Shown here: piece by piece, positions 5,790 through 40,612 of the stretch | Position numbering within the stretch: the stretch's first letter is position 1 | Layout of the letters: every line of letters begins with the position of its first letter | Source of the DNA: a virus | Length of the DNA: 43,206 nt | Virus genome (UHGV): UHGV-1355782 | Reading direction: 5' to 3' (one strand) | The notes under the pieces: generated by a model | Databases searched by the model: none | Seen by the model: only the letters and a program-made list of their open reading frames with translations | Told to the model about the DNA's origin: nothing | Program-made: the position numbers and the translations under genes

Positions 5790-5816
5790 AAGGCCCCTTA
5801 CGGGGCCTTAGTTTTA
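5790..5816. terminator. bidirectional rho-independent terminator
   Basis: AAGGCCCC-ttac-GGGGCCTT with T-run on plus strand and A-run upstream (T-run on minus strand). Confidence 0.7.
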
Positions 5817-6098: not shown

Positions 6099-6125
6099 TT
6101 TCCATCTCCTGTTTAAGTTAACTGA

Positions 6126-6154
6126 ATAGTACCCTATTATATTGGTGTGTGCAA
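6126..6154 (-). promoter_or_regulatory. class-1 promoter TTGCAC-N17-TACTAT with embedded palindromic operator (6124-6139)
   Basis: minus-strand -35 TTGCAC, 17-bp spacer, -10 TACTAT; spacer carries TAATAG-N4-CTATTC; same element at 15189, 37750, 39057. Confidence 0.5.
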
Positions 6155-6220
6155 ACTATTTGTTTACGTATTCCTGTTATTCCACCTAATTGTAAATGTT
6201 GGAATAAACTATTCGAATAG

Positions 6221-6249
6221 TTGACTTTTCACTAAAAATGTGCTAAGCT
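6221..6249 (+). promoter_or_regulatory. strong sigma70-type promoter (TTGACT-N17-TGnTAAGCT) driving structured leader RNA copy A
   Basis: -35 TTGACT 6221-6226, extended -10 TG-c-TAAGCT 6242-6249; near-identical promoter at 37441. Confidence 0.55.
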
Positions 6250-6253
6250 CCAC

Positions 6254-6363
6254 CTGAGCTTGTGAAGTATGAACAAGCGACCGCGGCGCGGGCAGGTAAC
6301 GGAGCGGGACGTAAGTCCTGAGTGTAGTTACGCTGACGCGTTCGGAAGGGCCATAGTCTATTG
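6254..6363 (+). ncRNA. conserved promoter-proximal structured RNA element, copy A (candidate cis-acting leader or small RNA)
   Basis: no ORF; about 110 nt highly similar to 37473-37584; conserved stem GCTTGT/ACAAGC; hairpin GGGAC-gtaa-GTCCT replaced by GTGCC-atta-GGCAC in copy B. Confidence 0.35.
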
Positions 6364-6429
6364 CTTGTGTAAAAAGTAACTGGTTTACGGAGATTACGCC
6401 GTTTCTATGTTTAAATGATAAGGACTAGC

Positions 6430-6449
6430 GCCCCGCTTTAAGGCGGGGC
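6430..6449 (+). promoter_or_regulatory. GC-rich hairpin (weak intrinsic terminator/attenuator) between leader RNA and spanin RBS
   Basis: GCCCCGC-tttaag-GCGGGGC followed by short TTTACTT. Confidence 0.3.
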
Positions 6450-6473
6450 TTTACTTATCGAGAAAGGAGAAAC

Positions 6474-6860
6474 ATGAATCTTAAAGCAACTGTCGTAGCG
6501 GGAGCATGTTTCATCATCCTGGCCTACGCACACGGCATCTACCAGTATCGCAGCGGCTGGGGCGAAGGCCGCGCTAATCTCGTTTCGCAGCAACAGCAGA
6601 AAGCACAGGCTGAGTTAGCGAAGAAAACACAACGGCAGCAGCAGGACGAATCGAAGGCCGCAGCCGCTGACAACGAAGGCAAGACGAAATCGGAGGTGAT
6701 TACCCGTGAAGTCGTTAAGTACATTAAAACGCCTGGCCGCAGCGTGTGCACTTTCGACGATGCTCGCGTCCTGCTCAAGTCCCGCGCTGTCACCAACGCC
6801 AATTCCATCCCCGGATACGACGATGATGCAGCCGCCGTGCAAACTGGCGCTGCCAAGTAG
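6474..6860 (+). CDS. i-spanin (Rz-like)
   Basis: N-terminal TM segment LKATVVAGACFIILAYAHGIY, Q/A/E/K-rich coiled-coil periplasmic region; RBS AAAGGAG; o-spanin overlaps in another frame. Confidence 0.65.
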   Translation: MNLKATVVAGACFIILAYAHGIYQYRSGWGEGRANLVSQQQQKAQAELAKKTQRQQQDESKAAAADNEGKTKSEVITREVVKYIKTPGRSVCTFDDARVLLKSRAVTNANSIPGYDDDAAAVQTGAAK

Positions 6861-8804: not shown

Positions 8805-8820
8805 GGTTAAGCTATAATCG

Positions 8821-8847
8821 AGAGGGACTTCGGTCCCTCTTTTCATT
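8821..8847 (+). terminator. rho-independent terminator after capsid gene
   Basis: AGAGGGAC-ttcg-GTCCCTCT followed by TTTCATTT. Confidence 0.65.
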
Positions 8848-11725: not shown

Positions 11726-12763
11726 ATGGCTACAACTCCTTTTAAGGGCGCGAATACCGCGCAATTCTATGTGGCGGAAGTGACCCCGGGCGTAACACCA
11801 AGTAACCCGGTCTGGTCGCCGTTGCGAAACACCGGCGGCGTTCCTGCGGTAACCCGCGACGCGCTGACCTCCAACGAACTGGACGGCAGCCGTGAAACCA
11901 CATCCATCCGCACCGGTAACAAGCAGGTTAGTGGTGAGTACGCAATCGAACTTAGCTCACGTAGCCAGGATGATTTCCTCGCAGGCGCGATGACGTCTAC
12001 GTGGCAGGATGGCGTAACCTTAACTGCGGTAGGTATTACGGTAGACCCGGTAGCGAAAACCTTCACCCGCGCCGCCGGTAGCTTCATTACCGATGGCGTT
12101 GAAGTCGGCGACCTTCTGTACTTCGACGGCTTAACCGGAGACAACGCCAAGCCGTTTATCGTTACCGCGGTAACTGCTACGGTTGTTACGGGTGCGGGTA
12201 TCCAACACACCCTGACCGCCGAAGGCCCTATCGAGACCGACGGTAAAACGGGTGACAAGCTGGAAACCGGTAACGCGTGTAAGACATTCTCCATCCTGAC
12301 GTGGTTCAAAGGACAGTGCGGGAACCCGGACGCGTACATGTTGACCAAAGGTGTGGAAATCTCCGGTTTTACTATCGAGCAAGCCGTAAATGCGATGGTA
12401 ACCGGCAGCTTCCCATTCATCGGTCTGAGTCAGGAGATTCTTACCGCGGCGCCAGCAGGTTCCGACTTCTCCCAGGTCACATTCACTGACGAGCCGTTCT
12501 CTTCTGTAGATGTGTCTGTGTTCGACGGTTCTACGCCGTTGCGTTGCGATACTCTGACCATCACCAACGACAACGGTGCTTCCGCGCAGTTCGAACTCGG
12601 CAACAGTAGCGTCGCGTTCGTGGAACGTGGTCGCGCAGCTAACACCTTCTCCATCTCTGGTAAGCTGTACGACATGGCGATGATTCAGAAGTTTATCAAC
12701 GAGCAGCAGGTAGAGATTAACTCTATTCTGGCGGGGGTAAACGGGCTATGTCTTTCAGTTTAA
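11726..12763 (+). CDS. major tail protein (putative)
   Basis: ATG 11726 with RBS AAGAGG (ORF track starts at GTG 11720); Thr/Gly/Val-rich; followed by strong terminator. Confidence 0.55.
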   Translation: MATTPFKGANTAQFYVAEVTPGVTPSNPVWSPLRNTGGVPAVTRDALTSNELDGSRETTSIRTGNKQVSGEYAIELSSRSQDDFLAGAMTSTWQDGVTLTAVGITVDPVAKTFTRAAGSFITDGVEVGDLLYFDGLTGDNAKPFIVTAVTATVVTGAGIQHTLTAEGPIETDGKTGDKLETGNACKTFSILTWFKGQCGNPDAYMLTKGVEISGFTIEQAVNAMVTGSFPFIGLSQEILTAAPAGSDFSQVTFTDEPFSSVDVSVFDGSTPLRCDTLTITNDNGASAQFELGNSSVAFVERGRAANTFSISGKLYDMAMIQKFINEQQVEINSILAGVNGLCLSV

Positions 12764-12898: not shown

Positions 12899-12923
12899 AA
12901 GGCCCCGAAAGGGGCCTTTTTCT
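12899..12923. terminator. bidirectional rho-independent terminator
   Basis: AAGGCCCC-gaaa-GGGGCCTT flanked by T-run downstream and A-run upstream. Confidence 0.7.
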
Positions 12924-15158: not shown

Positions 15159-15188
15159 TTTAAACCCCTTCATTGTTGGTGTAAGTGA

Positions 15189-15217
15189 ATAGTACCCTAT
15201 TATATTGGGGTGTGCAA
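15189..15217 (-). promoter_or_regulatory. class-1 promoter TTGCAC-N17-TACTAT with palindromic operator (15187-15202)
   Basis: near-identical to element at 6126-6154; directly upstream of antisense island. Confidence 0.5.
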
Positions 15218-15325
15218 GTAATGTGATAGAATAATTTTGCGCCTAGTGTCGCACACGAAAAGCGGGTGGTTCCCGTCTGGCGCATTTACCTTTAACCTGT
15301 AACCTCTTAACCAAAGGATTAAAGA

Positions 15326-24400: not shown

Positions 24401-24424
24401 AGGCCCCAAACGGGGCCTTTTCTC
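24401..24424 (+). terminator. rho-independent terminator after tailspike
   Basis: AGGCCCC-aaac-GGGGCCT followed by TTTCTC. Confidence 0.65.
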
Positions 24425-24743: not shown

Positions 24744-26164
24744 TTCTTACCTCGTCTCTTCATGTAATTAAGCAATTCTTCCTGCACCGATTTCTTCTCG
24801 TCGGTACGCGCGGCAACAACCTCGTCCAGCGTGTCTTTAGCTACGATGTGATACAGGAACACCGGGCGCTCATGGCCTGCCTGTTTCTGGCGTACTGGGC
24901 CTATACGCTCGACAACCTGCAAATAGTGCTCAAGGTTCCACCCTTGTGAAATAAACGCCAGATGATGCCCGCCGTCCTGTAAATTCAAACCATGCCCGGC
25001 TGATGCGGGATGCACACACAAAATCTCGATTTCACCGCGGTTCCACGCTTCCATCTGCTTATTGCCCTTAGCGCCTTTTGCAAACGCCTGGGCCTGTGGG
25101 AATCGCTTAAGGATACGCTCCAGTTCATGCTTGAACTGATAGGCCACCAGTAACGGCGCGCCCTGTAACTCCTCAACAATGGACTCCAGCGCATCCAGTT
25201 TCGTGTCGTGCACTTTCTCCCATTCTTTCGTTGCTTCACCATCCGGCCCGGACACATATACGGCACCGGATGCAATCTGCAAACACTTCGACGTCTTCGC
25301 CGCTGCGTTAGCCGCTTCAACTTCCCCGCTCTCAAGTTCAGCGAATAACTTCTCCTCCATATCGATGTACGCCTGACGTGCTTTCTTCGGCAGGTCAATT
25401 TCCACCGGCACGATAATAGGTGCTTCACAACCGAACCACTCGGCAGCATCAATCGTAAGACTGATGTCCTTCATCTTCTGGTGAATCTCATTATCAGCAC
25501 CAGGGCGGGCATGGTACTCACGCGCCATAGCCGATTTGCCTTTCTGTACAGAGTTAAACCATCGGTCGGTGAATGCCGTGTATGAAGAACCGAGGCGCTC
25601 GCCAGCGTCAATAAACCAGTTCTGCCCCCACAAGTCTTTGAGGCCGTTCGGCGACGGTGTTCCCGTAAGGTTTATCAGCCGCTTAACATTTCTAAATGCT
25701 ACTTTACTAAGCGCCTTTGCCCTCTTGCTCCCGCCAGAACGGCTACGGTACGATTTCAACTTTGTACTTTCATCGTTAACTATCACAGTAAAGGGCCAGT
25801 CATCTACCCCGTAATAGTCGATAAGCCACTCTATAACCTCATAGTTAATACAAATTACATTAGCGTCTGACTCCAGCGCCGCGATGCGGCGCTTCTCTGA
25901 ACCGGTAGCATCGACGACACTCAGGCATGGGAAATTCCATTTCTCTTGTTCTGCTGGCCATGTGCCAGACGCAACACGTAACGGGGCGAGGATTAACACG
26001 CGGTCCTCGTCATTAAGCTGCCCGTTTCGGAACAGTCGGTTTAATGCCCACAGTACGCTGCCAGTCTTCCCGGCGCCCATGCTTGCCCATATGTTGCAGC
26101 GATGGTGTTGCAACATGAACGAGGTCATGAGTTTCTGGTACTCGCGTCTTTGAAACTTAGACAT
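24740..26164 (-). CDS. SNF2/DEAD-like superfamily 2 helicase
   Basis: Walker A MGAGKTGS, DExx box VNDEST; start at ATG 26164 with RBS ACGAGG (ORF track extends to 26287, overlapping the methyltransferase). Confidence 0.7.
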   Translation of the reverse strand: MSKFQRREYQKLMTSFMLQHHRCNIWASMGAGKTGSVLWALNRLFRNGQLNDEDRVLILAPLRVASGTWPAEQEKWNFPCLSVVDATGSEKRRIAALESDANVICINYEVIEWLIDYYGVDDWPFTVIVNDESTKLKSYRSRSGGSKRAKALSKVAFRNVKRLINLTGTPSPNGLKDLWGQNWFIDAGERLGSSYTAFTDRWFNSVQKGKSAMAREYHARPGADNEIHQKMKDISLTIDAAEWFGCEAPIIVPVEIDLPKKARQAYIDMEEKLFAELESGEVEAANAAAKTSKCLQIASGAVYVSGPDGEATKEWEKVHDTKLDALESIVEELQGAPLLVAYQFKHELERILKRFPQAQAFAKGAKGNKQMEAWNRGEIEILCVHPASAGHGLNLQDGGHHLAFISQGWNLEHYLQVVERIGPVRQKQAGHERPVFLYHIVAKDTLDEVVAARTDEKKSVQEELLNYMKRRGKK

Positions 26165-27028: not shown

Positions 27029-27058
27029 TTCTCAATTCCTTATATTGTTGGTGTATGG

Positions 27059-27346
27059 CTAACTATAATAGTTCGCTATTAGGTCGTCAACCTGTTTAAA
27101 CGAACCAACGACAAAAACATTTGCTCCACGTTTACGCATCCGCTCGTGCTCTCGTAGCTGGTGTGGGTCTGGCTTCGTGTTTTCGTCTTTCTTAACCTCG
27201 ACGAACCAGATGATGCCGCCGGGGAGAATTACCAGCAGGTCAGGAGCGCCCGCTCTATTTTCGTACGACAATTTGCGTACGAGGCCGCCGATAGCCTCGA
27301 ATCGCTCTTTTGCGTATTTCTGGATGCGCCCCTCAGGCGTACTCAT
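27059..27346 (-). CDS. VRR-NUC domain nuclease
   Basis: PD-(D/E)XK-type motif GAPDLLVILPGGIIWFVEVKK; C-terminus ...IANYYS encoded by the promoter/operator repeat. Confidence 0.65.
   Translation of the reverse strand: MSTPEGRIQKYAKERFEAIGGLVRKLSYENRAGAPDLLVILPGGIIWFVEVKKDENTKPDPHQLREHERMRKRGANVFVVGSFKQVDDLIANYYS
27062..27090 (-). promoter_or_regulatory. class-2 promoter TTGACG-N17-TATAGT with palindromic operator (27066-27081)
   Basis: minus-strand -35 TTGACG, 17-bp spacer containing TAATAG-cgaa-CTATTA, -10 TATAGT; lies inside the 3' end of the VRR-NUC gene. Confidence 0.5.
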
Positions 27347-30230: not shown

Positions 30231-30254
30231 TAAAAAGGCCCAATGAAGGGCCTT
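30231..30254 (-). terminator. rho-independent terminator (minus strand) after SSB-like gene
   Basis: minus-strand hairpin AAGGCCC-ttcatt-GGGCCTT followed by TTTTT. Confidence 0.6.
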
Positions 30255-30900: not shown

Positions 30901-30960
30901 AGTTCAGCCCTCATTAAGTTTAGATTTTAAGTTTACTCCGGGAACTGCCCGGCCAGTGAT

Positions 30961-31461
30961 TTAACTATAATAGTTCGCTATTCGGTAGTCAACTTCTTTT
31001 AGCAAATTACTTTCAAAATTCTTTCTCGCCACGTTAGCCTGTTCAGGAGTTTCGAATAGTCCAAGGTAACGATATTGCCCGTTTACGGTAATTCCAGCCT
31101 GCCATTTACCATGGCTTTTGCGCCAAAACACGCCAGTGTACCCGCTTTTGTTATGACTTCTTCCGGTTTGAATGCCGCCTTTAGCCACATTATCGCTATG
31201 AGCGATTAACTGGAGATTCTCTATCCTGTCATCATTTCTTATCGCATTTATATGGTCCACCTCAAACCCTTCAGGTATAGGGCCGTTGTGGTACTCCCAT
31301 ATTAAACGGCTTCTTTGGTAGGACTTACGATTAATGTAGATCTGCACATACCCTGAATGGTGGAGGCTTCCTGCCTCCTGACCAGCTAACATTCTTTTTG
31401 TATTGTGGCGATAGATTAGTTTCCCGTTTTCATAAATGAAACGCTCCCGAACTAAACTCAT
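30961..31461 (-). CDS. HNH homing endonuclease with AP2-like domain
   Basis: HNH motif DHINAIRNDDRIENLQL, AP2-like GYTGVFWRKSHGKWQAGI; ATGA-coupled start at 31461; C-terminus ...IANYYS. Confidence 0.7.
   Translation of the reverse strand: MSLVRERFIYENGKLIYRHNTKRMLAGQEAGSLHHSGYVQIYINRKSYQRSRLIWEYHNGPIPEGFEVDHINAIRNDDRIENLQLIAHSDNVAKGGIQTGRSHNKSGYTGVFWRKSHGKWQAGITVNGQYRYLGLFETPEQANVARKNFESNLLKEVDYRIANYYS
30964..30992 (-). promoter_or_regulatory. class-2 promoter TTGACT-N17-TATAGT with palindromic operator (30968-30983)
   Basis: same architecture as 27062-27090; lies inside the 3' end of the HNH gene 30961-31461. Confidence 0.5.
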
Positions 31462-34003: not shown

Positions 34004-34034
34004 TTGTTTCTCTCCTCTCGTTTGGTATTGGTTA

Positions 34035-34064
34035 ACTATAATAGCGAACTATTCATGTTGTCAA
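34035..34064 (-). promoter_or_regulatory. class-2 promoter TTGACA-N18-TATAGT with palindromic operator (34039-34054), leftward early promoter
   Basis: minus-strand consensus -35 TTGACA; operator TAATAG-cgaa-CTATTC in spacer. Confidence 0.55.
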
Positions 34065-34068
34065 TGGG

Positions 34069-34097
34069 CTTTTCTAAAATAATTAATATGGTACTAT
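34069..34097 (+). promoter_or_regulatory. putative rightward promoter for Cro-like gene with operator-like site (34084-34099)
   Basis: -10 TACTAT 34092-34097 preceded by TAATAT-ggta-CTATTC; poor -35. Confidence 0.35.
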
Positions 34098-34128
34098 TCA
34101 CGTATCAACTGACTAAGGAGTAACTGAC

Positions 34129-34555: not shown

Positions 34556-36819
34556 TCCAAATCCTCCTCTGTCACTGTCAACATTTCATTCGGTTCGTAT
34601 ATTGTCTTCGGAATCTTGTTATCAGTTATTCGGGTGTTCAGCCTGTAACGACCAGGGATTATCTGATTGTTTTCGTCAGTACCCGGAACAAGATACCCGG
34701 CCTCAACCATTTTCTTAATCTTCCCGCGTTCTATAGCTTCTTTGGAGTTAAACGCCTTCGCGTTGGGGTCAGACTGCGCGAGCTTATTCGCTGCAGCTAC
34801 CGTGATGCCTTCGTTGCCGCTGTAGGTTCCTTCTGCCAGCTCAAACGCTGCCAGTATCGTGGCCTCCGAACTGTTGACGGCGTTCTCTACGGTTTTACGT
34901 ACGTTTTCTTTACCTTCCTTTGTCAGCCCTTCTTCCCGCTCTTTCTCCTCGTCAGTCTTGAACGGCTCGAAGCCCCACGGCATCAGCACAAGCGCCTTGT
35001 GCGGCTCAGGCAGGTCGAGGTTTACGATTGTGCCGTATTCCTCTGTGCTACCGATGAACTCAACCGCACGGTACTCTTTCGGCGGCGGTGCTTCACGGAA
35101 CTGTACCGACTCCAGCACCATGCCAACCGTCTTCTGTTGAGGCCCGTGCTTAAATTTAGAGTGATATACGTTTATCTGGCGGTCGGTTGCGCGTTCAATT
35201 GTCAGTTCCACGTCGACACCAGCATACAGCGCCCCACTGCCACGGGCTTTCTTTCCGCCTTTCGGCGTATGATGGACAACGCCTACCGCGGCTTTAGTCG
35301 CGTCACGCACTTCTTTAAGGATGGCGATAACTTTACCCATGCCGATTGCCGTTGATGAACTGTTCTCGTCGAACTTATCAATCGTCAGGGCCAGCGTCTG
35401 GTTTAGTGTGTCGAACGCGACCATGCCAATAGGTTCATCTCCCGCGGTTTCGCGCATTAGCTTAATCAGGCTCTTCAGTTTGCCGACCTCACCCATATCG
35501 ATGACGTGTACATAATCTTTACCTTCCACGCCGTATTTAGCCGCTAGTGCGTCGATACGGGTGCGCGTAGCGGCACCACCCTCACCGTCGATATAGAAGT
35601 GGTGGCAACGCTGGGTATCAGCCCCTGCGAACCGGTATCCCGCCGCGCTAAGGTACATCATACCCAGCGTATAGAACGATTTGTACGTGCCTGATTCCCC
35701 GACAATATCCCATATACAATCCGACGGCATGTACCCTTCAACGACGAAATCAGCCTTTACCGGTTCCGGTAACTCGTCCTCCTCTGAGTCATCCTCGTCT
35801 TCCAGGTCGTCAAGGCTGCATGAAACAGATTCACGCGCGCCCCACCCTATAGCCTCAGCCACTTCACTGAACGGCAGCCCGGTCGCATCACACGCGTATT
35901 TCCACACCTCTTTCGGTGACATGCCTTCGGTTGCCGTAATGTCGGTGTCGTGAATCATGGTTACGTTCGGCGCTTCGTACCCTTCACGCGGGAAACACAG
36001 CAGGAAGTCATCCGGGCGCGGCGTAGGGTCGCTGTAGTTCTCTGCGTGTTCCGGTGTAGCTGGCATCTTAAGGCCGCGCGGCGTCATGACGCCGCCGTAC
36101 TCAAACGCCAGCGCTTCGAACGCGTCTGTAAACGCTGTGCGCAGTTCTTCCGGTATCTGGTAATCCGATGCGCTGCTAACGTCAACGGCGGTGGCGCCTT
36201 CCAGTAATTCGTCCGGGTCAATCAGGTCGTTGCGGCGCGACCAGATAACCTGAGAGCCAACCGGTGGTAGGTACATCGGCTGCGACAGAGTAAACCCGCT
36301 GCGGTCCGCACCCATGCCTTTGAAGAAGTGTTCCAGCAATCCGTGGCGAACACGGATGATATCACCACCCTCAACCGGGCGGGCCAGCGGCATAACGACG
36401 CGAAAGCGCGGCGACTCATCGGTATGTGATGCCGTGGTGTAGAGACACATCGCCCGGCGGCTGCGATTAACCTGGCGCACCGCTTCCTGGTACTCTTCCG
36501 GTGTTGCACTGTCGAAGTCCAGATACGCCAGCGACGATTTGCTCACAGACGCGTCACAGCGATAGAAGAAGCCTTTACGCGCTTGTTTAAAGCCACCGGT
36601 TTCCGGGTCTTTTACGGTGCTGTGTGTAGAATCGCACGCGGCCGTGATATAACCGGCCGCAGTCTTGGGGTTAATCCCGTCACGAACGGCATCGAGCGGC
36701 TTGATTAGCTCTTTCAGGTCGTCCAGTGTTGCCGTGTGTGTGGTTCTGACGTTTATATCCTTTTTCTCTGCTCGCGCGTTGCGGCGTGACCACGAGTAGG
36801 ATAAAATTACATCGGACAT
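34552..36819 (-). CDS. primase-helicase (N-terminal primase-like region, C-terminal P-loop ATPase)
   Basis: 755 aa; Walker A GESGTYKS; RBS GAAGGAA; C-terminus ...VTEEDLE shared with exonuclease. Confidence 0.6.
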   Translation of the reverse strand: MSDVILSYSWSRRNARAEKKDINVRTTHTATLDDLKELIKPLDAVRDGINPKTAAGYITAACDSTHSTVKDPETGGFKQARKGFFYRCDASVSKSSLAYLDFDSATPEEYQEAVRQVNRSRRAMCLYTTASHTDESPRFRVVMPLARPVEGGDIIRVRHGLLEHFFKGMGADRSGFTLSQPMYLPPVGSQVIWSRRNDLIDPDELLEGATAVDVSSASDYQIPEELRTAFTDAFEALAFEYGGVMTPRGLKMPATPEHAENYSDPTPRPDDFLLCFPREGYEAPNVTMIHDTDITATEGMSPKEVWKYACDATGLPFSEVAEAIGWGARESVSCSLDDLEDEDDSEEDELPEPVKADFVVEGYMPSDCIWDIVGESGTYKSFYTLGMMYLSAAGYRFAGADTQRCHHFYIDGEGGAATRTRIDALAAKYGVEGKDYVHVIDMGEVGKLKSLIKLMRETAGDEPIGMVAFDTLNQTLALTIDKFDENSSSTAIGMGKVIAILKEVRDATKAAVGVVHHTPKGGKKARGSGALYAGVDVELTIERATDRQINVYHSKFKHGPQQKTVGMVLESVQFREAPPPKEYRAVEFIGSTEEYGTIVNLDLPEPHKALVLMPWGFEPFKTDEEKEREEGLTKEGKENVRKTVENAVNSSEATILAAFELAEGTYSGNEGITVAAANKLAQSDPNAKAFNSKEAIERGKIKKMVEAGYLVPGTDENNQIIPGRYRLNTRITDNKIPKTIYEPNEMLTVTEEDLE

Positions 36820-36877: not shown

Positions 36878-37168
36878 TTATCTTTTAGCCAGACATTCCA
36901 TCAAATGTGCGTACTTACGATAATAATCTGCGACAATCTCATCACCGAAATACTGATAAACGTAGGATAGGTGGTCGGAGACATCGATGGAAGCCGACAT
37001 TGTGCTGAGTCTTCGGAGACTAATCAACTGCAATTCTTCTGTAACGCAAAACGGCAAATATGAGTCCAGTTTACAGGAAACGTTGAAACACAACGCGTAT
37101 TCACCTTGCACTAAATAAACCATATAAGCATTGTCGTTCTCTTTATCGTGGAAAATTACACCTTTCAT
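36878..37168 (-). CDS. hypothetical protein (96 aa)
   Basis: RBS AAGGAG; ATGA coupling to upstream HTH gene. Confidence 0.5.
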   Translation of the reverse strand: MKGVIFHDKENDNAYMVYLVQGEYALCFNVSCKLDSYLPFCVTEELQLISLRRLSTMSASIDVSDHLSYVYQYFGDEIVADYYRKYAHLMECLAKR

Positions 37169-37333
37169 TTCACGTTCTCCTTAATCCATGCTTCAACTTT
37201 ATTACGGTCAAATGTTCCTGGCATCCGGCGGCCCATTACTTTAACGCTGCAATCAGGAAACTTTCCACTCTTAATCCAGTTATTGATTGTCTGGCGGGTG
37301 ACGCCGATTAATTCTGCAACTTCATTGATAGTC
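37165..37333 (-). CDS. AlpA/excisionase-type HTH DNA-binding protein (putative regulator)
   Basis: MTINEVAELIGVTRQTINNWIKSGKFP helix-turn-helix; start ATG 37333 with RBS AGGAG (ORF track extends to 37425). Confidence 0.6.
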
Positions 37334-37440
37334 ATTTCGCGCTCTCCTGTGTAAGATGTATCGAAGTATAAGGCGGTAACTTTGTAAAAGCAACCAAAAC
37401 ACCACACAAAGTTACTAAGATGCAAAAGATGCTACTAGTA

Positions 37441-37469
37441 TTGACTTTTACTTAAAAATATGCTAAGCT
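37441..37469 (+). promoter_or_regulatory. strong sigma70-type promoter (TTGACT-N17-TGnTAAGCT) driving structured leader RNA copy B
   Basis: -35 TTGACT 37441-37446; extended -10 TG-c-TAAGCT 37461-37469; matches promoter at 6221. Confidence 0.55.
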
Positions 37470-37472
37470 TCA

Positions 37473-37584
37473 CTGAGCTTGTGAGATATCGCAAGCGACC
37501 GCGGAGCGGCAGGGAACGCAACGCGTGCCATTAGGCACTTGAGTGTAGTTCCGCTGACGCTTTCGGAAGGGTCAAAGTCTATTG
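37473..37584 (+). ncRNA. conserved promoter-proximal structured RNA element, copy B
   Basis: non-coding; aligns with 6254-6363 with compensatory hairpin change; followed by GC hairpin GGGGTGGGC-taac-GCCCACCC at 37670-37690. Confidence 0.35.
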
Positions 37585-37749
37585 TTAATCCCGCCTAAAT
37601 ATCCAAGTCACTGATAATTAAAAGTTTCTATAGTTGCCGTGAGCAAGGTAGAGAGTACTTCACTCCGCTGGGGTGGGCTAACGCCCACCCACTGCGTTGC
37701 GTACTCTTTTAAGAAACGAAAGAATCACAACGGCAACGTAACTATTCTC

Positions 37750-37779
37750 TTGCGCACCCCAACCATAATAGGATACTAT
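37750..37779 (+). promoter_or_regulatory. class-1 promoter TTGCGC-N18-TACTAT with palindromic operator (37766-37781)
   Basis: upstream of first rightward small gene. Confidence 0.45.
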
Positions 37780-37813
37780 TCACTTATTGGAACGAGACAG
37801 AGGAGTGAGGGTT

Positions 37814-37996
37814 ATGTTTAAGAAGGGTCAGTTGGTTAAAATTAAAGAGACCAAAGAACTCTCGGTTATATTCGCGTCCCACAAAGAAAATAGATATTAT
37901 TTTGCTGCATCTTTAACAGGATCGTATCTCACCGTTTTATACGCACAGGATATGGAACTCATCGGCAACAATTTTAAATTCAAAGGGGTGAAGTGA
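37814..37996 (+). CDS. hypothetical protein (60 aa)
   Basis: ATG 37814 with RBS AGGAG. Confidence 0.45.
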   Translation: MFKKGQLVKIKETKELSVIFASHKENRYYFAASLTGSYLTVLYAQDMELIGNNFKFKGVK

Positions 37997-39056: not shown

Positions 39057-39085
39057 TTGCATGCTAAGATAGAATAGGCTACTAT
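39057..39085 (+). promoter_or_regulatory. class-1 promoter TTGCAT-N17-TACTAT with palindromic operator (39072-39087)
   Basis: fourth copy of the TTGCAY/TACTAT element. Confidence 0.45.
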
Positions 39086-39116
39086 TCATTTACACAAACG
39101 AGAGGAGAGACGGAAG

Positions 39117-40030: not shown

Positions 40031-40335
40031 TGATTGACGCATATATCTATTGGAGCGGGATAGCTTTTAATTTTACCCTTGTCGCTGCGGTTCTTTGGGT
40101 GCTTTGGTGTTGGGTACTGTTCCCCGCCGTAGAAGCGGCCAGCATGGCGCGGTACTACCGAAGAATCGGAAAAGCGCACAGGATTAAAGTACACAACTGG
40201 TTAAGGCTATTCCTCGCTAACTACGAATTGTTTGGGCGCACGTTTACGGCGCAGCGGTGTGCTTACGGCTACTGGGAAGGAGTAGGGCTATGGGAAGTAT
40301 TTCCTGCGGAGGATGAAAATGAGCCTGGCAACTGA
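40030..40335 (+). CDS. hypothetical membrane protein
   Basis: ATG 40030 overlapping previous stop; TM segment IAFNFTLVAAVLWVLWCWVLF. Confidence 0.45.
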   Translation: MIDAYIYWSGIAFNFTLVAAVLWVLWCWVLFPAVEAASMARYYRRIGKAHRIKVHNWLRLFLANYELFGRTFTAQRCAYGYWEGVGLWEVFPAEDENEPGN

Positions 40336-40612
40336 CATCCTGAAGCGAAGCGGCCTTGTGCCGCTGTCGCCGAGAGCTAAAACACGAATATACAAGCGCC
40401 GCCGTAATGCGCTGTACCCCGAGATTCAGGCCAGACGCAAAGCTGTCCGTGCCTGCGGATTCCAGAACGGGAAGGCCGTGAATCTCGGTGAGTTTAAAAC
40501 AAAGGAACGCGCAGCAATCGCTAATCGGCTATTTAAATACTGGAAATCGCTGGGATATGAAGATATTCCGACGAAACCGCAGAGACGACAATACATCTGG
40601 AGACATAAATGA
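40319..40612 (+). CDS. hypothetical basic protein
   Basis: ATG 40319 6 nt after RBS GGAGG; Arg/Lys-rich. Confidence 0.45.
   Translation: MSLATDILKRSGLVPLSPRAKTRIYKRRRNALYPEIQARRKAVRACGFQNGKAVNLGEFKTKERAAIANRLFKYWKSLGYEDIPTKPQRRQYIWRHK

Follow-up and report, generated by a model that had tools for sequence, protein, structure and literature searches.

A structured, promoter-coupled leader RNA, duplicated in a Kagunavirus genome

Genome and operon organization

The window (the whole 43,206-nt stretch of virus genome UHGV-1355782 that was analyzed) is a genome of a virulent E. coli phage of the genus Kagunavirus, within the subfamily Guernseyvirinae. The 330 bases around the element described here match 181 phage records at 80–99% identity, nearly all of them from the Guernseyvirinae genera Kagunavirus and Jerseyvirus, phages of E. 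coli and Salmonella. Members of these genera are among the phages most often isolated for therapy and biocontrol directed at E. coli and Salmonella, and the timing and maintenance of late transcription with the host polymerase alone in the Guernseyvirinae is the question on which the element bears.

With the gene map taken from the annotated relative VB_EcoS-Golestan, two rightward operons can be delineated, both headed by the same promoter-leader module. Operon A, headed by copy A, opens with the i-spanin gene (6474–6860, plus strand) and carries the spanin, scaffold, capsid, connector, and major tail genes up to position 12763, and the operon headed by copy B comprises a run of small early genes followed by those for holin, endolysin, terminase, and portal. 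The replication genes are encoded on the opposite strand. The tail operon, located past a block of minus-strand genes, has a candidate promoter of its own, read from the sequence as TTGGGG-N16-TGaTAGAAT at about 15205–15232.

A first-pass annotation of the window had described the late operon as punctuated by intrinsic terminators at 8821, 12899, and 15882. The first of these holds as a terminator-like site internal to operon A (8820), located after the capsid gene and with eight more genes downstream, but 12899 is a bidirectional terminator that closes operon A ahead of the minus-strand block, and 15882 lies inside the separately promoted tail operon. Upstream of the first early gene (37814) and 3' of leader B, a promoter of a second class, TTGCGC-N17-TACTAT with the ATAATAGGATACTATTCA motif, spans 37738–37782 on the plus strand, with the motif itself at 37765–37782; this motif of the second promoter class has been reported by PHIRE (PMC9825357).

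Copy B is located at the minimum of the cumulative GC skew and at the point where transcription diverges. This position would suit a replication origin at which a structured, G-rich RNA made next to a strong promoter forms an R-loop or remains hybridized and primes DNA synthesis, and the non-template strand is indeed G-rich right after the start site (GGCGCGGGCAGG, GGAGCGGGA). However, GC skew in the window tracks gene orientation and provides no separate origin signal, copy B is an optional component of these genomes, the two copies point in the same direction, and there is no other mark of an origin, so that we regard a primer role as very improbable.

A promoter-leader module in two copies

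The module consists of a TTGACT-N17-TGnTAAGCT promoter and a leader of about 110 nt, and is present in exactly two copies, at 6221–6363 (copy A) and 37441–37584 (copy B), with no third copy detected by a repeat scan of the window. The promoter pattern TTGACTTTTNNNTAAAAATNTGCTAAGCT occurs twice in the window (6221–6249 and 37441–37469), compared with 0 occurrences in 100 shuffles, and the 32-nt block TGAGTGTAGTTNCGCTGACGCNTTCGGAAGGG likewise occurs twice (6319–6350 and 37540–37571), compared with 0 expected, in agreement with the initial description of two similar copies behind almost identical promoters. The copies can be aligned from the −35 element through ...CTATTG (ending at 6363 and 37584, respectively) and diverge beyond this point.

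Promoter A (6221–6249, plus strand) is composed of a −35 TTGACT (6221–6226), a 17-nt spacer, and an extended −10 element with TG at 6241–6242 and TAAGCT at 6244–6249; the corresponding positions in promoter B (37441–37469, plus strand) are 37441–37446 for TTGACT, again followed by a 17-nt spacer, 37461–37462 for TG, and 37464–37469 for TAAGCT. The promoter had originally been called near-consensus. Its −35 hexamer agrees with the consensus in 5 of 6 positions and the spacer and extended −10 are kept, but TAAGCT agrees with TATAAT in only 3 of 6, and a consensus scan did not list the promoter. Every relative retains, across 44 promoter variants, the −35, the 17-nt spacer, TG, and TA(A/C)GCT, and the base 3' of TG is unconstrained (C/A/G/T). 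Because of this conserved architecture and the free base after TG, as expected for an extended −10, the 6221–6249 site looks like a promoter despite its weak −10 hexamer. Judging by the spacing, transcription is predicted to start at about 6256 (copy A) and 37476 (copy B). A near-repeat of the −10 hexamer, TGAGCT (6255–6260, plus strand), overlaps the predicted start site; comparison of promoters reveals this repeat as TAAGCT..TGAGCT in K types and TACGCT..TACGCT in Jerseyvirus types, with variable spacers, but not in the promoter region of Cornellvirus that was compared. In relatives, the promoter and the leader are always inherited together.

Predicted fold of the leader

Both copies fold alike, into a hairpin at the 5' end (P1) followed by a long irregular hairpin (P2–P4). 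P1, predicted from the fold and from relatives, is GCUUGU-(9 nt)-ACAAGC at 6258–6278 on the plus strand, with arms at 6258–6263 and 6273–6278. In relatives, U-A pairs of P1 are changed to U-G; P1 is lengthened to 8 bp in copy B and in one further variant (L066), and is replaced in the Jerseyvirus allele by UACGCU-UUC-AGCGUA.

The long hairpin, delineated by folds and by covariation in relatives, occupies 6281–6345 on the plus strand. Its basal part, P2, is formed by CCG/CGG and GGCGCG/CGCGUU with C6284 bulged, and the latter helix reads GGNGCG/CGCNUU across both copies. P3 consists of CAG/CUG and the 5-bp GUAAC/GUUAC with G6332 bulged. Above P3, a purine-rich internal loop precedes the apical hairpin P4 (6306–6319), which takes the form of at least six different helices among the variants. 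P4 is the central hairpin that, along with the shared 5' stem GCTTGT...ACAAGC, had been singled out at the outset, and both are present as described within the same fold: GGGAC-GTAA-GTCCT in copy A is matched by GTGCC-ATTA-GGCAC in copy B. Two further compensatory differences between the copies are located in the long stem, namely, C6287-G6340 replaced by A-U and U6297-A6330 replaced by G-C. Copy B, from 37473 to 37584 on the plus strand, combines the 8-bp P1 with a long hairpin topped by GUGCC-AUUA-GGCAC and scores 102 bits with the covariance model of the leader (R1).

The 3' side of the internal loop, GAGUGUA (6320–6326, plus strand; UAGCGUA in the Jerseyvirus allele), remains constant while the adjoining helices change, and may be regarded as a candidate recognition site. 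The hairpin is followed by the conserved tail AAGGGCCAUAGUCUAUUG (6346–6363, plus strand), which is predicted to be single-stranded and in which ...UUCGGAAGGG(C/U)C...CUAUUG is retained in all K, C, and J types.

Covariation and strand specificity

Variants of the leader were gathered from viral contigs, spanin-anchored loci, and metagenomes, and searched with R1. This search of related phages recovered the element with covarying helices, in 33 distinct variants from phage and metagenome records that fall into several types: A, the usual form of copy A; B, the second copy of the window; C, the second copy of Golestan; D, a further variant type; and J, a strongly diverged form (35–42 bits) found at the copy-A position in many Jerseyviruses, in which P3 becomes CGCG/CGCG and P4 becomes GGGCG(C/U)-CACA-(G/A)CGCCC.

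Across the 33 variants, standard pairs are found in 98.4% of 707 cells, compared with 84.4 ± 0.7% in shuffles and 23–45% with slid partners, and 12 of the 24 pairs are altered on both sides; the structural alignment underlying the 98.4% was made by hand and fitted to the structure by its authors, and hence favors it. Two results are independent of that alignment. The register of pair 6287:6340 is locked by invariant flanks, and the pair is C-G in 18 variants, U-A in 13, and A-U in 2. In an alignment produced by MAFFT and RNAalifold, not fitted by hand, P2 and P3 were recovered, with 7 of 18 pairs compensated.

P2 additionally contains two conserved G-U pairs that are viable solely in plus-strand RNA; these pairs and the U-G changes in P1 point to an RNA helix on the plus strand rather than a DNA palindrome. 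P1 is also an inverted repeat in the DNA that overlaps the start site, as would be expected of an operator 3' of the promoter, but changes in P1 and P2 to U-G or G-U keep the RNA helix and not the DNA palindrome, and the helices covary while their sequences get replaced.

The other non-RNA reading, a gene for a 36-aa protein, derives from a 36-codon ORF that starts at ATG 6269 and extends to 6379 on the plus strand of copy A, and is annotated in some GenBank records (Bas71_0007). The first-pass annotation saw no plausible ORF in the segment; an ORF does exist, but it is not conserved. The ATG is missing from copy B, from two other variants (L030 and L066), and from all 8 Jerseyvirus variants, and the frame is broken by a frameshift or stop in 6 further variants (GolA, L033, K1ind-type, and C types). 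With the start lost or the frame broken in most variant types, the ORF was rejected as a protein gene, and translation of the segment, the finding named initially as evidence against an RNA element, is not borne out by the homologs. An operator or a protein gene in place of an RNA is thus largely refuted, and we give it next to no weight. The covariation in relatives, the strand-specific G-U pairs, and the non-conserved ORF uphold the original proposal of selection on RNA structure, and support the leader as a non-coding RNA element that is under selection for secondary structure and coupled to a specific promoter.

Distribution and allelic conservation

The A allele of copy A, upstream of the spanins, was identified in about 181 phage records, and the J allele at the same position in about 268 Jerseyvirus records; together, these approximately 450 records compare with roughly 496 that contain a subfamily-wide protein. 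Copy B is optional, with a second copy present in about 43 of the 181 related records (about a quarter). In K1H, no second copy was found, and a consensus TTGACA-N17-TAAAAT promoter with an unrelated leader is located there instead.

In phages with the A allele, the entire 5'UTR (6254–6473, 220 nt) is 96–100% identical to the window, whereas the upstream gene is 82–87% identical and the spanin and scaffold genes are 59–93% identical. In phages with the J allele, the leader is just about 54% identical to the window, with genes at 63–83%. Given this difference between 96–100% identity within A and about 54% in J, the leader exists as separate alleles that hardly vary internally. One and the same allele is found in phages with E. 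coli, Salmonella, Raoultella, and Shigella as isolation hosts, and no other non-coding sequence at the start of the capsid operon is as well conserved in the Guernseyvirinae.

The segments that survive across alleles are ACCGCGG.GCG, the loop (G/U)AG(U/C)GUA, CGC.UUCGGAAGGGCC, and CUAUUG, which are largely unpaired or flank the basal helix; in particular, the UUCGGAAGGGCC..CUAUUG tail and the loop persist between alleles whose helices all differ. Conservation of unpaired segments suggests recognition by a conserved macromolecule rather than merely a stable fold and, accordingly, points to a conserved partner of the loop and the tail.

Such a partner could be a phage protein, with the internal loop and the tail serving as a nut-like site for an unrecognized antiterminator, or as the site of a regulator of timing or translation. 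Purine-rich internal loops with possible G-A pairs are the kind of site bound by arginine-rich peptides, and the leader displays a conserved loop of this description, along with two discrete, internally invariant alleles. The phage also encodes several very basic small proteins without an assigned function, one of which (99 aa, pI 11.2, with AKTRIYKRRRNAL) is present in 496 records, although in our reading this protein has an AP2-like DNA-binding signature (no Pfam match). Among 20 small phage proteins searched against PHROGs and Pfam, none matched an antiterminator family, N and Q included; the apical loop, the part at which N binds boxB, is variable; and, with different helix types within one genome, a protein partner would have to read only the shared core. 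On balance, docking of a phage protein appears rather unlikely.

A further candidate is in Cornellvirus SP-031, where a similar TGaTAACCT promoter is located at the same place and is followed by a GC-rich leader with CGGAAGGGUC and a GUGCC/GGCAC hairpin; this syntenic element is too diverged for a convincing alignment or fold (R1 score of 7 bits, fold z = −0.86). A degenerate pattern, when applied to viral contigs, yielded mostly chance matches in GC-rich phages, and just the Guernseyvirinae loci scored with R1; a stricter pattern applied to metagenome contigs found only Guernseyvirinae-like contigs of about 44 kb and two weak GC-rich chance matches (18 bits). No match was found by blastn in 5,426 complete E. 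coli genomes. The whole window was searched against Rfam, with no match at the gathering threshold; the best sub-threshold match, wcaG (19.1 bits against a cut-off of 42 bits), falls outside the core. In the literature, we found no description of the leader element and none that ties these phages to antitermination, and the only Kagunavirus RNA-seq study found, a time course of vB_Eco_K1B4, reports genes only (PMC12645636). The leader is, then, a genuine, previously undescribed family of structured leader RNA, absent from Rfam and sometimes mis-annotated as a 36-aa protein, and we conclude with high confidence that this new family is restricted to Guernseyvirinae phages within the searched data.

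Downstream hairpins and the 5'UTR

GC-rich hairpins are present 3' of both copies before the first gene, at 6430–6449 and 37671–37690, as had been reported. The former is the inner tier of P6, a two-tier hairpin predicted from the fold and covariation at 6417–6459 on the plus strand, with the outer stem GAUAAG/CUUAUC and the inner stem GCCCCGC(U)/(G)GCGGGGC, located 15 nt upstream of the spanin Shine-Dalgarno sequence. The inner stem covaries (GCCCUGC/GCAGGGC, and in J GCCCGGC/GCCGGGC and GCCCGAC/GUCGGGC), and so does the outer stem between alleles (UAUACG/CGUAUA in J). In the A allele, the inner stem is followed by a weak U-tract, UUUACUUAUC, with 3 leading U, which pairs with the upstream GAUAAG; in the Jerseyvirus homolog, it is followed by UUAGCGUAU, without a U-tract. 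Because the 6430–6449 hairpin belongs to a larger, two-tier structure that covaries, and has no U-tract in J, its role as a terminator to be overcome is doubtful. The hairpin 3' of copy B, GGGUGGGC-UAAC-GCCCACCC (37671–37690, plus strand), has no adjoining U-tract and lies in a segment common to phages without copy B.

A stand-alone small RNA, formed by termination at the downstream hairpin or by processing close to it, would target host mRNAs in trans or serve as decoy to a host protein, such as a defense or RNA-binding factor, and the two copies would raise the dose. This alternative is compatible with the strong promoter, the compact fold, the hairpin after both copies, and the conserved single-stranded tail, and the second promoter between leader B and the first gene means that copy B could be its own transcription unit. 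Nevertheless, the downstream hairpins lack good U-tracts, no related sequence is found in the 5,426 E. coli genomes, and the leader shows only chance complementarity to the remainder of the phage genome, with 23 ten-mers compared with about 17 expected and 4 eleven-mers compared with about 4, so that no antisense target beyond chance was detected there. We therefore consider a trans-acting RNA unlikely.

The organization of the 5'UTR also accommodates a leader that stabilizes or processes mRNA, in which P1 would block 5'-end-dependent decay and P2–P4 and P6 would be sites of RNase III or RNase E processing or of protection, and would thereby govern late-mRNA half-life and yield. P1 begins 2 nt after the predicted start in K types, the whole 220-nt UTR is made of hairpins, with the covarying P6 just before the ribosome-binding site, and such a leader would require no trans factor and pose no difficulty as an optional element at the early promoter. 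It resembles stabilizer hairpins of the ompA type, in which the hairpin lies within about 2 nt of the (predicted) 5' end, and the RNase III sites of T7, long irregular hairpins in the untranslated leaders of highly expressed phage genes. These functions, however, need pairing rather than sequence, yet conservation is highest in the loops and the tail, and the unpaired nucleotides are far more conserved than either of the known functions needs. Likewise, the UTR is 96–100% identical where the neighboring genes are 59–93% identical, and, with the predicted start in J lying 7 nt after TACGCT, P1 would be reduced to 3 bp. Stabilization or processing of mRNA is accordingly a possible but minority explanation in our assessment.

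Comparison with known antitermination systems

The proposal of a put-like antitermination leader was addressed with a covariance model (R2) of seven sequences, namely, HK022 putL, HK022 putR, and five that are put-like; put is not among the families of Rfam, so that the negative Rfam result does not bear on put membership. As a positive control, R2 scored HK022 putL at 95.8 bits and putR at 47.2 bits, but found no match at E ≤ 10 with filters off at either leader (6254–6363 and 37473–37584). Membership of the leader in the put family is thus rejected, whereas put-like action survives as the best single guess; with no match to R2, the analogy to put leaders is one of position and general shape.

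HK022 putL starts at +2/+3, and put elements consist of two stem-loops with bulges, about 70 nt in total, with no dedicated protein known (PMC9378689). The leader resembles HK022 putL and putR and the put-like RNAs of lambdoid phages such as HK639 in being a structured, cis-encoded RNA just 3' of a major promoter, which begins at the (predicted) start site, contains two stem-loops with bulges or internal loops, and occurs, in the genome analyzed here, as two diverged copies that head long operons. The two hairpins lie 0–2 nt apart. The leader differs in size, about 100 nt compared with about 70, and in proportions, the first hairpin being short (5–8 bp) and the second far longer. Neither a triplex nor a junction G is assignable, the leader resembles put in neither sequence nor profile, the phage is virulent and not lambdoid, and the second copy is optional. 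The put RNA acts in cis through the beta' zinc-binding domain, counteracting pausing and termination without protein factors, and only by analogy might the leader do the same.

Compared with the lambda nut sites, the leader shares the presence of duplicated RNA signals with a hairpin 3' of the two main promoters, but the hairpin is about 65 nt compared with 15 nt, and the apical loop is not conserved, with GUAA, GUUAA, AUUA, GUUA, GUCA, CACA, CUCA, CGCA, CUCG, and UAG among the variants. The tail (A/G)CUCUAUUG only resembles GCUCUUUA, and by eye there is no boxA consensus. Given the variable apical loop and the lack of an N family among the 20 small proteins, and with boxA judged only by eye, the leader was not assigned to the nut sites. 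The lambda PR'-tR' region offers a third comparison, with a constitutive-looking TTGACT promoter, a −10-like hexamer at the start site, and an untranslated leader of about 200 nt that ends in a hairpin and precedes lysis and morphogenesis genes. In the phages analyzed here, however, no Q-like protein was found among the 20 small proteins, the hairpin is a poor terminator, the RNA structure itself is under selection, and the −10-like repeat is just 9–11 bp from the −10 and missing from Cornellvirus.

Two other candidates were discarded: an Xis-like HTH_17 protein encoded next to copy B has no similarity to solved AlpA structures that would make it an AlpA-like antiterminator, and resemblances to RfaH ops and rrn boxA are poor by eye.

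Possible action on RNA polymerase

With high confidence, the leader is a promoter-coupled, non-coding, structured 5'-leader RNA module. The sequence data suggest that it probably controls either transcription of the long operons or the lifetime of their mRNAs, any effect on transcription being inferred. Our tentative first choice, held with well under even confidence, is a cis-acting leader that modifies the transcribing polymerase, analogous but not homologous to HK022 putL; it ranks ahead of the close rivals, which are, in decreasing order, mRNA stabilization or processing, protein docking, and a trans-acting RNA.

Under the polymerase model, transcription by the host sigma-70 RNA polymerase would begin near 6256 or 37476, and the first ~110 nt of the transcript would fold into P1 at the very 5' end and the long P2–P4 hairpin, displaying the purine-rich internal loop, with the conserved single-stranded tail next. 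The leader would then act in cis, on the polymerase from which it has emerged, and its binding to the elongation complex would be direct or mediated by host elongation factors. The polymerase so bound would resist pausing and termination, and one promoter could express a long operon past terminators such as that at 8820.

Several observations are consistent with this scheme: the structure is selected, conservation exceeds the needs of pairing, the element, like putL, is encoded from the (predicted) start site onward and is co-inherited with the promoter, the module heads the two rightward operons, one of them with the internal site 8820, and there is no recognizable N- or Q-type protein among the 20 small proteins. 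On the other side, there is the negative result with R2, and many small phage proteins without an assigned function could be the partner. Furthermore, copy B is missing from K1H and most relatives, and the tail operon is seemingly served by a plain promoter, which implies that long operons can do without the element and that the early operon does not need it. The hairpin that follows the leader is unconvincing as a terminator, given the J homolog without a U-tract; terminators after capsid genes are common, and partial read-through at such sites suffices; and the 5'-terminal hairpin and the fully structured UTR fit mRNA stability equally well. The stronger version of the polymerase model, a second class of protein-independent, polymerase-modifying antiterminator RNA that is unrelated to put, hard-wired to a sigma-70 promoter, and drives the late operons of a large family of virulent siphoviruses, many therapeutic E. 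coli and Salmonella phages among them, with unmodified host polymerase, is correspondingly more speculative, and we consider it rather doubtful.

Should the leader turn out to reprogram RNA polymerase, put would be the sole earlier family of such RNAs, and synthetic biology would gain a read-through part that is both compact and portable. As a stabilizer or a protein site, the leader would still define the control point of late gene expression in these phages, and in either case it is a clean experimental target with covariation support.

Sequence motifs flanking the conserved core

Two further features adjoin the module. Immediately upstream of the −35 of promoter A, the palindrome CTATTCGAATAG (6209–6220), identified by reading the sequence, is kept in nearly all copy-A promoters and is a possible site for a regulator. 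Downstream, overlapping the end of the tail, a small hairpin predicted from the fold, P5 (UUGCUU-GUGUAAA-AAGUAA; 6361–6379, plus strand), contains on its 5' side a repeat of the P1 5' arm (GCUUGUG), and the Jerseyvirus allele also repeats the top of its own P1 (GCUUUCAG) at the place of P5.

Repeated elements within the leader RNA and its promoter

P1, the 5'-terminal hairpin of the leader RNA, has its 5' arm and loop repeated directly after the conserved CUAUU, as GCUUGUG in the A allele, the usual form of copy A (6258-6264 and 6363-6369), and as GCUUUCAG in the J allele, its strongly diverged Jerseyvirus form (about 1434-1441 and 1528-1535 in L040, a record with a Jerseyvirus-type element). 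This repeat makes a small P1-like hairpin, P5, and between alleles P5 and P1 alter jointly.

The promoter has a second copy of the -10 hexamer located 3-5 nt downstream of the first (6244-6260; 1412-1427 in L040). The two hexamers co-vary across alleles, being TAAGCT..TGAGCT in the K types and TACGCT..TACGCT in the Jerseyvirus types, where the second TACGCT doubles as the P1 5' arm; the repeated hexamer could serve as a signal for sigma-dependent pausing or for the start site. Immediately 5' of the -35 hexamer are the palindromes CTATTCGAATAG in copy A (6209-6220) and TACTAGTA in copy B (37432-37439), the CTATT/AATAG half-site of which is reminiscent of ATAATAGGnTACTATTCA, the motif of another promoter class.

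In the Cornellvirus FSL SP-031, a syntenic and very diverged promoter and leader precede the spanin gene (25440-25580 in that record). This leader, which scores only 7 bits against R1, the covariance model of the leader RNA, still has CGGAAGGGUC and a GUGCC/GGCAC hairpin, and the SP-031 promoter is without the repeated -10 hexamer.

A 36-codon ORF on the plus strand (6269-6379) lies entirely within structured leader A; several GenBank entries list it as a hypothetical protein, Bas71_0007 being one such case. The ORF is not conserved, and the gene call is probably a mis-annotation.

Exchange of the early upstream module

In phages lacking copy B, such as K1H (34879-35000 in its record), a consensus TTGACA-N17-TAAAAT promoter occupies the place of this copy and is followed by an unrelated leader of ~75 nt and a GCCCCGC/GCGGGGC hairpin, all joined to the same downstream segment as in the copy B phages. 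A different promoter and leader spliced onto a common downstream segment indicate that the early upstream module is exchanged as a cassette. The early leader of Golestan carries, 3' of copy B, short tandem CACT/CACTCA units (37800-37827 in its record), a run that is not found in the window.

Other promoters, candidate regulators, and terminator-like hairpins

The palindrome-containing motif ATAATAGGnTACTATTCA, reported by PHIRE as a "phage promoter" motif of fBC-Eco01 (PMC9825357), lies over the -10 region of a second promoter class and is present in 6 copies in the window, compared to 0.05 expected (6123-6140 and 15186-15203 on the minus strand; 34038-34055, 34083-34100, 37765-37782, and 39071-39088 on the plus strand). 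One copy falls in the stretch that separates leader B from the first early gene, and the motif probably marks the site of a common regulator. Three strong leftward promoters of replication genes, TTGAC(A/T/G)-17/18-TATAGT, are each overlapped by the repeat TAACTATAATAGTTCGCTATT (27056-27080, 30958-30982, and 34029-34053).

A candidate regulator is a 99-aa protein with a pI of 11.2 (40313-40612, plus strand), found in 496 phage records, for which a Pfam search gave no match. Near the N-terminus, AKTRIYKRRRNAL is similar to the arginine-rich motifs found in N proteins, and the C-terminal GKAVNLGEFKTKERAAIANRLF looks AP2-like by our own reading. Divergently to copy B, a Xis-like HTH_17 protein is encoded (37165-37338, minus strand), for which no similarity to the solved AlpA antiterminator structures was found; the phage encodes this protein without an integrase.

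The hairpin family D1, AAGGCCCC-loop-GGGGCCTT, is represented at 5790-5809, 12899-12918, 24401-24418, and 30235-30254. At least the hairpins at 5790-5809 and 12899-12918 are called terminator-like on both strands, and these two are located at points where gene orientation switches.
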